64,000 bases of DNA from Eledone cirrhosa. Lineage: Eukaryota. The position numbers and the translations under genes are program-made. The DNA lies in NCBI GenBank assembly GCA_964016885.1, contig OZ024740.1, positions 64,914,001-64,978,000 on the forward strand, in the 5' to 3' direction. How positions within the stretch are numbered: position 1 is the stretch's first letter; each line of letters starts with the position of its first letter. The notes beneath the pieces were generated by a model. It was not told the DNA's origin. It worked only from the letters and a program-made list of their open reading frames with translations, and searched no databases. This document shows, piece by piece, positions 1,174-60,023 of the stretch.

Positions 1174-1878
1174 AATTAAGTTAAAAATGTACATCCATAT
1201 ATGTATACTGAAATACTAGTATGCATATGAATACACACACGTATACATATGTAGATGTACCAAGTCTTTCACTGGTTACTTTACTGTGAGTATCCAGCTA
1301 TTCTGTATGTAAACACACAGACAAACCGGTTTTTAGAGTCATACTGGTTTTTGAGGAAACACCTTTCCTCTATTCTCCAGAAATTTAATTTCGTTTCGTT
1401 ATTTGTTTTTATCGTCTCCGTTGAACCGGTACGTACTCACACTCTATGCAAATTAGTCTGCCCACTACTAATTTTCATAGAAAAAGCATATAACGATATG
1501 TGCTTTTACGATTCTCCAGAGAGGCCGGTAGATAGGTAAATATTGCTGATGAGTTGTAACAACAACGAAACTAGTTCAATATTCCTTGTCTGGCTTTCTG
1601 GAGAATAGAGGAAAGGTGTTTCCTCAAAAACCAGTATGACTCTAAAAACCGGTTTGTCTGTGTGTTTACATACAGAATAGCTGGATACTCACAGTAAAGT
1701 AACCAGTGAAAGACTTGGTACATCTACATATGTATACGTGTGTGTATTCATATGCATACTAGTATTTCAGTATACATATATGGATGTACATTTTTAACTT
1801 AATTGTTTAAGCGTCAGTCATACAAAAGTGAGTTACAAACGAAACGAAATTTAATTTCGTTTCGTTATTTGTTTTTAT
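1174..1878 (+). mobile_element. HHR-bearing non-coding retroelement, family A (~466-bp monomer, ~30-bp terminal redundancy, 210-bp inverted 5' arm)
   Basis: aaatttaatttcgtttcgttatttgttttta at ~1381 and ~1847; 1174-1383 is the reverse complement of 1595-1804; (TA)n on both sides; HHR inside. Confidence 0.8.
1539..1583 (+). ncRNA. Minimal type-I hammerhead ribozyme
   Basis: aatattg-CTGATGA-gttg(taacaa)caac-GAAA-ctag-TT-caatatt: 7-bp stem I, 4-bp stem II, palindromic stem III, GUU site. Confidence 0.85.
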
Positions 1879-3471
1879 ATATATATAAATATATATATAT
1901 ATAAATATATATATATATAAATATATATATATAAAAGAAAAAATATATTAATATATTTATATATATATATATATGCAAAAGTTCTATTTAAATTGTTGGG
2001 ATACAACAAGAAAATATTATTATAACTGATATAAAGCACTCGACAAATATTTGGAGTAGATATACAATATTAATAAATGGAAACTATATTTATAAAACCA
2101 TATTTATTTCATTATATATATTTCAAGGATACCAAGTTAAATCATGGTATGCCTTCATTTTTTTTATTAGATTCATTTTATTTTTTTTTATTAGATTCAT
2201 TTTATTTTTTATTTTTATTTTTTATTAGATTTGTTTTTATTCTGATAGCTTCTCATAATTTTCAAAAGTTTGTCCTCTCAATGTCTTGATTAAAATATAC
2301 GTAATATAAATTTCTATGCTAAATATATTAAACATATTATTTTAACTTGAAATATTCTATAATACTTTGGGATATTTTAGTATTTTGATGTTTGTAGAAT
2401 TTGTTTGCCTTTTAAGTTATATTGATATAATTATATTTCCAAAATATAATCCTTTTGTATTTTATATACTCAATTGTACTATGTTATATGTTGATGTATA
2501 CTTATGTCTATGTACGGCTTATCTATCTATATGTGTGTGTTGACATACATATACATGTGTTATAGGTTTTTTTGTGATTATAGTATTTTTTTTGTGAGTA
2601 TACACGCGTCACAATTGAAGATACACACACATATCTATTCATGTATAGCTAAGAATTATGGGTGTGAATGTACAGGCATACACATGCAGCTTTTGATTGC
2701 AGATATACATAATTTAACAGCCATAAATGCAGAAAAGTTAATCCTATATATTTATATATATATACTAAAATTTTTTAATTAATAACACAAGGAGTGTATA
2801 GCAATAAATAAAACATCACTTATGCTTTGTATGTATACATTGTGTGCGGGAGTAGATATAATGTGTATTTTCTGAGTGAGTGAGTATATATATATATTTA
2901 TGTACCTTTGCCTATGTATATGTGATATACGATGGATAATCTCTCTAGCAATATATATATTTTATAATGTTTAAATTCCAATTTTTAATATATTGATCTC
3001 AATTTTTAAACTAAATATATAATCATAATTAAACAATGTGTAATTTCTCATATTATATATCTATATTCCATTCACGAATATTAATATTTCTAATTTTATT
3101 TATTCATTTCATCTCAATTGTTAACTCAACTTAATATAACATAACTTAAGGTTTTCGTTCTCTCCCCCCTCTCTCTATCTCTGCATATCTCTCTCTTGAG
3201 TTCTTTCTCTGTCTGATGTTTTGATATCTCCCCGTTATTTTTCCTCTGTTCTTTTTTCCTCTGGTCTCTTTTCTTTTTGCTTTCTTCTTTTTCTTTATCT
3301 ATCTTTCCCTTTCTTTTCTCCACGTTTTTCTCTCTCTCTCCATCTTTTTACTTACTCTTAACACTATGACTTACTAAAGTAAACAAACCACTATCCGGAT
3401 GGCCTCCAAAAACAACGGTCACCTTTTTGAAAGGGTACGTCAATATCTATTTGTAAAACTGTTATATATTG

Positions 3472-3536
3472 TATTTTGTCTGATGAAGGCATACCATGAT
3501 TTAACTTGGTATCCTTGAAATGTATATAATGAAATA
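3472..3536 (+). ncRNA. Type-I hammerhead ribozyme (family L)
   Basis: tattttgt-CTGATGA-aggcatacca...tggtatcctt-GAAA-tgtata-TA-atgaaata; stem I with two G.U pairs, AUA site. Confidence 0.7.
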
Positions 3537-3720
3537 AATATGGTTTTATAAATATAGTTTCCATTTATTAAAATTGTATATATATATATATATATATATA
3601 ACGAAGGAAATGTGGTAAGGAACCAGGTGGACCATAACGCACCAAAGTACTCAATACTTAGGGTAGTAGAGTGGGTAATAGGAACAAGTAAGACGCCGAC
3701 GGCTGAGCTCAAGCCGTTTC

Positions 3721-57800: not shown

Positions 57801-58713
57801 AACATACCCACTGCCTGCTAATCGATATATCGATCTACCTCGATCAATCACCCCTCTAAAACGATCGTAAATACGTATCTCTGATATATATACATATACT
57901 TTCGGTAAATATTGATGCAATTCAATTGAAGTACTCAAAGTCATGTTACTTCTTCACAATAAGAATGGCGGAGTATATTTAAAAAAAGGAAACTGCGAAG
58001 TTATTGTAGAAGTTAAAGAGCCCTTTATTGTTAAGGCTATGATACGTCTTTCTGTGACGACAGTAGCCACGTGATTTCATGTAACCGGTGTCACGATCTC
58101 ATCAGGCAGCATCATTATATAATACGTTCTCGAGGCAATACAAACTAAAATGGCAATGGAAGCTTCATCTGTTACCTTGTAAACACTGTTACAAAATACA
58201 AGATCTCCGTTGTTATTGCCTTTCGAATTGGGCGTATATAGTTTTATCTTTTACCAAAATAATTAATGGTCCATTCTGACTCTCAGTGTCTCTCAACATT
58301 TCTTATTTTCCGTTCTTCATAACAACATGACAAGCCTATGCACTCATAACACTCCAACAGACATTCTAATCAACAGCTATATCTCCTTCCCATACTACGC
58401 AGGGCAAACAACAACCTTAGTTATAATTTGTATAGCGCTTGTTACGTATTTAAATATATATATATATATGTATATATATATATATATATATATTAATATA
58501 TATATATGTATATATATCTAATATATATATAAAATATATATATATATACATAAAATATTTATAAATATAATTATGTAATAAACAACACAATATAATTATT
58601 CCATTACCCAAGGTTTCATGAAGTCAGGCGACCCGAACAGAGGCGCCCGAAAGAAATCTTTAATATGGATGTAAGATATTAAATTAAAACAAACACATAC
58701 ATATATATATATA

Positions 58714-59621
58714 CACGAGGTGTGTCAGAAAAGTTCCAGGACTGATGTCACAAAAGATTTATTTCAAACCCAAACTTCACACTAAGAGTTTTCTCCTTCA
58801 AAGTAATCCCCCTGGAGTCTAATGCACTTTTCCATCCTTTTCTGCCACGCTTGCATGCACTCCTGGAAGGATTCTTCCAGGATACTCCACAGTTCCGTCG
58901 TCACGGCCTTTTTGATGTCGTCCACGTCTTCAAAACGGGTCCCCTTCGGGTCGTACTCGAAGATCCATGACTCATCACCGGGGATGACTGTCCCTAGCAA
59001 GTCTGGTTCGGTTTCAAGACGCTCGAGGATGTCCTGGCACACTGGCATACGTCGACCCTTCTGGTCGTCGTTCTGCAGTTTTGGCACCATCTTCGCGCAG
59101 ACATTCCGCATGTCCAAATCTTCAGTGAGAATCTTCCAGACGCCGTCCCGATTCATGCTCAGCTCATTTGCCATAAGTAGAACAATCAGCCGACGATCGC
59201 TACGCACCATCTGCCTGACGCGCTCAACGTTGACCTCAGTCCCGGTTTTGAGGGCCTTCCGCTCCTTGGGTCATCTTCCACGCTCTCGCGTCCTTCTTTA
59301 AACCTCTTGCAACACTCAAAAATACAAAAACATGAGCGTGACATCATCTCATCTCCATACGCTTGCTGCAGCGGAGTTTTCCCCAACCGCACTAGAAACT
59401 TCAAGTTTGTTCGTTGCTCTGTGCACATTGCTTGACGACCTGAAACAGAGGACATGTACATAAAATTATGAAGAAAAAAGTTTGATCGCTGCAGAGAGCT
59501 AAGATTACAGTTACATATTCCAGGGGGATTACTTTGAAGGAGAAAGCTTTTAGTGTGAAGTTTGGGTTTGAAATAAATCTTTTGTGACATCATTCCTGGA
59601 ACTTTTCTGACACACCTCGTA
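58714..59621 (-). mobile_element. Internally deleted mariner (Tc1/mariner) transposon with ~100-bp TIRs
   Basis: TIR acgaggtgtgtcagaaaagttccagg; transposase pieces [41 protein letters not shown] fused to KGTRFEDV...GDYFEG. Confidence 0.92.
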
Positions 59622-59800
59622 GTTCGAAATGAACCAGTTTTCAATAAGTAAGAGATCTGTTGACGACACCAAGATATATTTATTTAAATCCTAAAAGGGC
59701 CATTTATCTATGTGGAAATATGTGGTATGCTATACACTGACACACCTCGTATATATATATATATATATATATATATATATATATATATATATATATATAA

Positions 59801-60023
59801 AGAATTAGTATATCTACTAACATATATATACAGATGCATACCTATGCCAGCAAATATATAGGTTTTGTCTTAGTAACTTCGTGGTTCAATGCATGGGGAT
59901 GCAGAACAATAATATGAAAGACGTAAAATAAGAAAATTATAAAAATTAACTTACTTACTAAAATTGGAGTGAAATTTTAGTAAGTAAGTTAATTTTTATA
60001 ATTTTCTTATTTTACGTCTTTCA
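59801..60023. mobile_element. Diverged family D fold-back fragment in (TA)n
   Basis: Matches 13488-13660 (inverted arm) and 14317-14382 (direct arm starting ggagtgaaa). Confidence 0.85.

Follow-up and report, generated by a model that had tools for sequence, protein, structure and literature searches.

Introduction

The closest described relatives of the elements considered here are the metazoan non-long-terminal-repeat (non-LTR) retrozymes, which are non-coding, low-GC monomers with a type I hammerhead ribozyme that occur in tandem or as longer-than-unit copies and are predicted to form self-paired circles (PMC7229834; Li et al. 2026, 10.64898/2026.07.22.740005). A 2020 review describes animal retrozymes as being without a conserved motif that tells which retrotransposon mobilises them (PMC7761336), and a 2026 preprint argues for a role of Penelope-like elements (PLEs) from co-occurrence and from similarity to the PLE pseudo-LTR (pLTR) (10.64898/2026.07.22.740005). 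Here, we analyse a window, meaning a whole stretch of 64,000 nucleotides of Eledone cirrhosa (contig OZ024740.1, positions 64,914,001 to 64,978,000), in which hammerhead-bearing insertions sit at TA repeats. We consider it probable that all of these insertions are products of PLE reverse transcription, two of them being PLE ends, three being retrozyme monomers (families A, B and C) and the rest being short or doubtful pieces.

PLEs with an endonuclease (EN+) of the Hydra and Neptune/Nematis clades, which have hammerheads in their pLTRs, show 5' truncation, an inverted 5' copy, or arm, and a tail at one end only, and they lie in (TA)n (PMC4209133, PMC8557442, PMC3846280); the inverted arms and one-sided tail are described in PMC8557442 and PMC3846280, the TA targeting in PMC8557442, and pLTR sequences are reported to be sufficient in trans (PMC3846280). 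PLE proteins nick AT-rich DNA on both strands, and in the in vitro work on PAc, a Poseidon element of Anolis, both nicked strands are extended, a protein dimer is predicted, and complementary DNA (cDNA) starts at two internal sites downstream of the hammerhead, which define the tail and the copy ends (Frangieh et al. 2024, PMC11167929).

Animal retrozymes, their link to PLEs, the one-sided tail and internal priming are thus already published. The present window adds insertion anatomy as a tie between retrozymes and the PLE reverse transcriptase (RT), which is an increment and not a new system. Units without an open reading frame (ORF) carry the PLE signature, that is, an inverted arm, two fixed ends per family with one on each side, and often a short TA microhomology. 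This anatomy is more direct evidence for a PLE than co-occurrence, because the ORF-less monomers share arm, one-sided tail and TA target with neighbouring ORF-bearing PLEs. We found no description of this end structure on retrozymes in the literature searched, which largely leaves out subscription papers, and the parts of the retrozyme papers cited here do not describe dispersal in (TA)n as 1.1- to 2.5-mers with inverted arms and two fixed ends, unlike what is seen in the window.

Hammerhead motifs in the window

A strict descriptor (CUGAnGA and GAAA cores, a UH site, and stems I to III in type I order) found eight intact-core type I hammerheads, at 1546(+), 3480(+), 9360(+), 14241(+), 14780(+), 53214(+), 53197(-) and 29861(-), compared with a mean of 0.07 (maximum 1) in 30 block-wise dinucleotide shuffles; it also returned a mutated core (CTGGTGA) at 13203(-). 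With a relaxed descriptor, the eight strict motifs stood against 0.25, and 12 motifs against 2.6 when one core mismatch was allowed (12 shuffles). Families A, B, C, E, F and G have hammerheads of type I, and families D and H have variant cores (U3-A8 and U4A, respectively).

A first-pass annotation of this DNA had listed ten cores, one of them as mutated, from seven families. Eight of these are intact and one is the mutated copy at 13203(-), but the tenth, at 11524(-), has a poor stem I, although its core is perfect and stems II and III are good, and neither scan found it. The ten belong to seven insertions, with three cores in a single insertion of the 539-nt family and two forming the arms of another. 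Two supposed 3' half-cores also read differently: that at 7304 is part of a full U3-A8 hammerhead with its core, TTGATAA, at 7257, and that at 30076, assigned to the plus strand, comes from a minus-strand hammerhead read in reverse complement, whose core, CAGAAGA, lies at 30081.

A U-U mismatch at the base of stem II occurs in four hammerheads (9360, 11524(-), 30081(-) and 53214), as in axolotl HHR_Amex2 (PMC7229834), and the family C hammerhead has C-A at this position. Hammerheads of different families could not be aligned to each other by MAFFT. A descriptor for ribozymes like that of hepatitis delta virus gave zero matches in the window, the A/B hammerhead pattern gave 0 matches each in metagenome and viral contigs, and the C pattern gave 0 in metagenome contigs. 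Three candidates were set aside: CTGATGA at 58105(-), which neither scan scored, and a U3-A8 match at 524(-) inside a TA palindrome and an A3-U8 match at 25573 from the relaxed scan, both taken as chance. A strong three-way junction at 20170-20270(-), type I hammerhead-like with a U4A core, a 10-bp stem I and a score of 36, sits in the ORF1 region of a Tx1/L1-like long interspersed nuclear element (LINE) and may be chance; the second LINE copy of the window has no counterpart.

Three families of non-coding monomers

The family A insertion (1175..1875, +) holds an ORF-less monomer of 466 nt with a terminal redundancy of 30-33 nt and TA on either side. It has an inverted arm of 209 nt (1175-1383), identical at 209/209 positions, and a hammerhead core at 1546 with a predicted cut after 1576. 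The family B insertion (8893..9609, +) has a monomer of about 437 nt homologous to that of A, a core at 9360 and a predicted cut after 9390; its inverted arm (8893-9104) spans the monomer junction and is without the entire ribozyme segment, the flanking sides being joined at a short TA-rich overlap. A tail piece of B of 30 nt (15062..15091, -) lies between TA arrays. The family C insertion (13062..15030, +) comprises about 2.5 tandem 539-nt monomers and an inverted arm of 1.2 monomers, with cores at 14241 and 14780, the mutated core at 13203(-), and the arm junction at 13705, within the core. A diverged (83%) palindromic stub of C (59800..60023, -) has both ends as in 13062-15030, and one of its arms starts within 2 nt of the predicted cleavage site (GGAGTG). 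Together, A, B and C make up 5.7% of the window.

The periods of 466, about 437 and 539 nt, the inverted arms and the TA flanks are present as the first-pass annotation had reported. Its view that the host units lack ORFs holds for A, B and C; the units at 7304 and 30076, by contrast, end ORF-bearing PLEs. The longest ATG frames are 50 aa in A, 90 aa in B and 50 aa in C, and no PLE coding sequence was detected in them by tblastn with 240 relatives or by two profile hidden Markov models. As circles, the three monomers are predicted to fold strongly (minimum free energy (MFE) z of -10.5 for A, -4.8 for B and -5.9 for C), in contrast to controls from a PLE 3' untranslated region (UTR; +0.5), the body of family E (-1.25) and intergenic DNA (+0.2), with 40 shuffles each; sliding-window folding agrees that A, B and C are structured. 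As ORF-less units that are tandem or have terminal redundancy, and for which strong circular folding is predicted, A, B and C would be new members of the non-LTR retrozymes. Their sizes fall inside the 51-972 bp range of the retrozymes of Li et al.; they are larger than the retrozyme circles of 170-400 nt reported in 2020 (PMC7229834), and here the monomers are known from DNA sequence alone. Family C carries two complete hammerheads one after the other. With a length of about 1.1 units and a single hammerhead each, A and B fall, at these loci, outside the two-hammerhead "active" class of Li et al.

A and B are collinear over the whole monomer with 59% identity (score 221, shuffles 25 +/- 13, maximum 54.5). 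Among the 13 base pairs of their hammerheads, 6 are compensated, 6 unchanged and 1 broken to U-U, as far as two sequences can tell. By this comparison the 466-nt and 437-nt units belong to one lineage, in disagreement with the earlier description of all families as sequence-distinct. In the C insertion, each of the 23 substitutions among five segments occurs in a single segment, a pattern expected of units that started out identical; coverage by four or five segments is limited to the first 250 positions.

Just before an insertion end, A (1715-1810), B (9510-9620) and C (14400-14505) each contain a long hairpin whose arms resemble GTACATCT/GATGTAC; it is possibly an RT-recruiting element. In this region, B and C align above all 60 shuffles, in low-complexity sequence. 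In the comparison of 55 family pairs, B and C score 48.5 with a shuffle maximum of 44, and the hairpin and the end position are common to both; 53 of the 55 pairs, including other families and monomers compared with PLE ends, show no kinship above shuffles, and the monomers have no sequence in common with the three PLE ends of the window. Outside the ribozyme, family C also contains a strongly conserved island at 14044-14100, which holds GTGTCACGTGAT, has very high read depth and is possibly an internal promoter or a protein site.

Sequencing reads matching one C monomer in run X9, made up of restriction-site-associated DNA (RAD) reads, numbered 7,687, of which 6,869 were less than 95% alike, with depth concentrated in islands on the ribozyme halves and the tail. 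The 539-nt family is a many-subfamily repeat, and depth gives no copy number. The X9 depth (+ mates) fell from 930 to 39 across 14494, where 367 of 949 molecules end; this position is the +178 site and agrees with the end seen in the window. The joint between C monomers was found in three of four runs, and opposite-strand joints are present in independent runs. Among the loose ends listed, C continues into diverged homologous versions of the same non-coding layout.

These data bear on the possibility that A, B and C too are solo or tandem pLTRs, or internally deleted autonomous PLEs, with ORFs elsewhere and no self-propagating circle. Such an origin holds for D and H in the window; PLEs are reported to form partial tandems and solo pLTRs (PMC8557442, PMC3846280); 24 of 57 Xenopus retrozyme families match known elements, with PLEs accounting for 21 of 22 (Li et al. 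2026); and C read depth is concentrated on the ribozyme and tail, as in truncated ends. We regard this origin as unlikely for the three monomers, given that A and B are collinear round the entire circle with compensated stems, that folding is much stronger in the monomers than in the PLE 3' UTRs of the same window, and that the listed loose ends of C run into homologous non-coding sequence. No PLE ORF linked to A, B or C was found within the 64-kb window.

Penelope-like elements of the window

PLE-type insertions as drawn cover 19,860 bp, or 31% of the window, and three of them are ORF-bearing copies. Family D is a broken, 5'-truncated Hydra-like PLE (3601..7357, +) with a coding remnant at about 5048-6165 and an inverted arm of 1.4 kb. 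Its U3-A8 hammerhead (core at 7257, predicted cut after 7340) has a long stem II, was read by eye and scored by neither scan, and is present in both copies of the insertion; U3-A8 covariation is reported from Schistosoma PLEs (PMC4209133), and EN+ PLEs share both this core variant and a small palindromic helix III with the window's elements. The second copy is a palindromic stub (8595..8790, +) with both ends as in 3601-7357 and its junction in stem II. Family H is another broken, 5'-truncated Hydra-like PLE (30010..32280, -) with a coding remnant at 31009-32175 and its U4A core at 30081(-), 30 nt from the element end. Both D and H have a CxCX5C linker, a mark of the Hydra clade (PMC8557442), which is also found in 40 of 44 long relatives (DKT in 41, RW[KR] in 41). 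By the motif criteria of PMC8557442 rather than a tree with named references, namely linker, C-terminal GIY-YIG, 3' hammerhead and (TA)n target, D and H are assigned to the Hydra clade.

The third PLE (43171..48836, +) has an open frame of 626 aa (45100-46980) with Pfam RVT_1 and GIY-YIG, 5'-truncated and without about 140 N-terminal residues. Its linker, CX4CxxC, is of the CX2-5CxxC type found in 45 of 45 relatives, and on sequence grounds the element is of Neptune/Nematis type, a class within which Neptune and Nematis are not separated; its named relatives are mostly from bivalves (up to 67%). It has a 1.9-kb inverted arm, and only the arm side carries a tail, of 38 nt. Neither hammerhead scan found a motif in it, and its hammerhead may be decayed or of a form missed by the descriptor. 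An isolated old remnant of a PLE endonuclease C-terminus lies at 23221-23451(+).

Insertion anatomy

Repeats and arms were identified by masked self-BLAST in a window rich in microsatellites. Nine insertions carry an inverted arm, and in eight of them the outer ends lie at unequal distances from the cut site: +226 (arm) and +299 in A, +219 and about +280 in B, about +66 and +176 in C (two insertions), +17 and +97 in D (two insertions), and +22 and +89 in F, the eighth being the 45100 PLE with its 38-nt tail; the ninth insertion, that of E, is the exception. Both ends are common pairwise in six insertions, that is, A and B, the two of C (83% alike) and the two of D; A and B have the same two homologous end sites with arm and forward copy swapped. 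In all six there is one site per side, an outcome expected 1 time in 64 under independent equal choice, with the sites defined from the same copies. Of the eight ends for which the continuation of the element is known, five match the TA flank over TAT or more (p 4e-5 with a background of 6%). Junctions 13705 (C) and 2158 (E) coincide within the core to about one base and, together with the arm start in the stub at 59800, hint at a cleaved template and at RT stalling in the ribozyme.

Compared with EN+ PLEs, whose tails are 30-40 nt (PMC4209133, PMC8557442, PMC3846280), A, B and C have tails of about 60-110 nt and no ORF remnant. The two RT starts of PAc lie in an AC-rich stem-loop inside the ORF and show no target homology, whereas the sites here would lie in non-coding RNA and five of eight have microhomology; for PAc, reads with an end at the cleavage site were looked for and not found, whereas one junction in the window lies at the predicted cut (PMC11167929).

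The same anatomy bears on whether motifs and palindromes might have arisen by chance folding of AT-rich sequence or as fold-back artefacts of assembly. The window is rich in AT and microsatellites, the arm of A is 100% identical, and isolated motifs are weak in MFE. Set against this are the eight motifs where shuffles give 0.07, the A/B covariation, arms that end at family ends with flanks that are not mirrored, and the opposite-strand joints of C in independent runs. We therefore hold chance or artefact to be very improbable overall; it is largely refuted for the strict motifs and conceivable for the motifs at 11524 and 21545 and for the decayed family K.

A model for mobilisation by PLE reverse transcriptase

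Motifs, A/B covariation, redundancy, arms, fixed ends and TA targets are read directly from the sequence; cleavage, circles and the action of a PLE on A, B and C are what we infer from these features. In our model, a read-through or tandem transcript of the monomer would be cleaved by the hammerhead, likely in dimeric form given its short palindromic stem III, to give a cleaved and probably circular monomer. The monomer would be captured in trans by a PLE RT/GIY-YIG protein, and the (TA)n target would be nicked. Reverse transcription would be primed at two fixed internal positions that lie downstream of the ribozyme, aided by TA pairing of 3-5 nt, and would yield a cDNA exceeding the unit length on one side and a shorter one opposite; joining of the two cDNAs would produce an inverted-arm insertion with a one-sided tail. 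We offer as a speculative possibility that both nicked strands are primed on a single RNA by a dimer of the PLE protein, each from a different one of the fixed sites, in twin priming with strand displacement, and that an old circle lineage comprising A and B, and possibly C, has kept the start sites and a recruiting hairpin. Twin priming on a single RNA would explain the inverted arm, the one-sided tail and arms identical at birth. If so, circles of the A/B type would be a minimal natural substrate for PLE reverse transcriptase, and the two conserved start sites would provide a short defined RNA for studies of trans-mobilisation and of the origin of PLE inverted repeats.

The first-pass annotation had suggested retrozyme-like or solo-pLTR RNAs mobilised by a (TA)n-targeting PLE such as the one at 45145. 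PLE-type mobilisation and three non-coding families (466, 437 and 539 nt) are supported. That PLE is 5'-truncated, gave no hammerhead match at its end and has no sequence in common with the monomers; the two Hydra-like PLE families of the window are equally good partners.

Several points weigh against the proposed reading. Li et al. observed cleavage in 1 of 9 dimers tested (10.64898/2026.07.22.740005), and the PAc hammerhead is dispensable for insertion in vitro (PMC11167929). The four extra one-mismatch motifs are close to the 2.3 extra expected by chance, so that the case for the motifs in D and H depends on their location where PLEs end. Among the matches listed, no motif reaches the Rfam hammerhead gathering score: the sole hammerhead among 150 of 170 Rfam matches listed is at 1528-1599 (HH9), with 38.6 bits and a gathering score of 52, and a search of 9700-15040 gave 14 matches and zero hammerheads. 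Standard Rfam scans thus would miss much hammerhead-bearing sequence in such genomes. Isolated motifs fold weakly, with 1 of 10 having z < -3, and the MFE structure mispairs the core; this is expected of hammerheads with a short palindromic helix III, thought to act as dimers (PMC4209133), and is not positive evidence. Family E has the same end, about +48, on both sides. The ends with microhomology do not count as independent sites, and with a background that may reach double the assumed value, p is estimated at about 1e-3. Short copies are expected to end near the ribozyme anyway. Finally, the X9 drop at 14494 could be a variable region rather than an end; summed depth in run X1, a contig run, shows no drop there (116,815 to 114,661 to 63,913) and falls tenfold just beyond the +66 site, where AT-rich sequence can attract spurious matches.

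Alternatively, the monomers might be retrozymes whose arms arose when the cDNA snapped back or primed itself on one template, or whose RT came from an RTE- or Tx1-type LINE. Self-priming has been proposed for PLE inverted junctions (PMC3846280), a 39-nt snap-back hairpin lies at the 45061-45138 junction, and there are LINE ORFs in the window. Snap-back alone leaves unexplained a fixed, family-specific outer arm end, which can lie even beyond the forward end (B, D, F and the 45100 PLE), and the same anatomy is present on the ORF-bearing PLEs and was not seen on the LINE copies of the window in self-comparison. We consider this alternative distinctly unlikely and favour priming by a PLE protein at two fixed sites.

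Short pieces and other elements in the window

About ten independent non-coding families had been proposed; two of these are PLE ends, three are 3' pieces and two are doubtful. The hammerheads at 3480, 53214 and 29861 belong to 3' pieces without terminal redundancy, and families E, F, G and J show no tandem or redundant structured monomer. Family E (2062..3576, +; core at 3480) has an unstructured, ORF-less body of 1.3 kb and a short inverted arm that begins inside the core, and is likely a truncated PLE 3' UTR. Family F is a palindromic stub (53137..53341, +) with a hammerhead in each arm (53214+ and 53197-). The family G stub (29560..29873, -; core at 29861) has a stem II of 95 nt and an end at +180, and a second 3' piece (78%) lies at 15397-15552. 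Doubtful are the motif at 11524 and a possible 3' half, GAAAC-AATT-GUA, noticed by reading behind a TA array (21531..21695, +), where neither scan found a hammerhead at 21545. The motif at 11524 lies in unit I (9762..11735, -), which is terminally redundant, with the 46-nt terminal repeat 1928 nt apart that had been noted before, is mostly unstructured and has no PLE coding remnant. Decayed copies of a further stub family, 74% alike and with a shared 3' end in TA, lie at 295-460(-) and 9680-9783(-); they have a possible U3-A8 hammerhead by eye, unscored by the scans, and unit I appears to be inserted into the second copy.

The rest of the window is AT-rich animal DNA with TA, CA and TACA repeats, LINE remnants and PLEs. 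Broken copies of a Tx1/L1-like LINE, 67-70% alike, lie at 15980-21070(-) and 36500-41090(+), an RTE-like LINE with an 847-aa open frame at 49081-52274(-), and an RT remnant at 61970-63850. A decayed element at 58720-59615 has terminal inverted repeats of 97 nt and no Pfam match; we take its transposase to be mariner-like. TA arrays flanked by short inverted repeats (497-602 and 11735-11776) give false microRNA matches in Rfam. A direct duplication of about 320 bp, 93% alike, lies at 27895-28845 and ends at a long TA array. A dispersed SINE-like family (short interspersed nuclear element) with a B-box-like motif, which presumably resembles octopus SINEs, is present at 8062-8313, 24184-24389, 34588-34784, 41780-41956 and 53484-53650.

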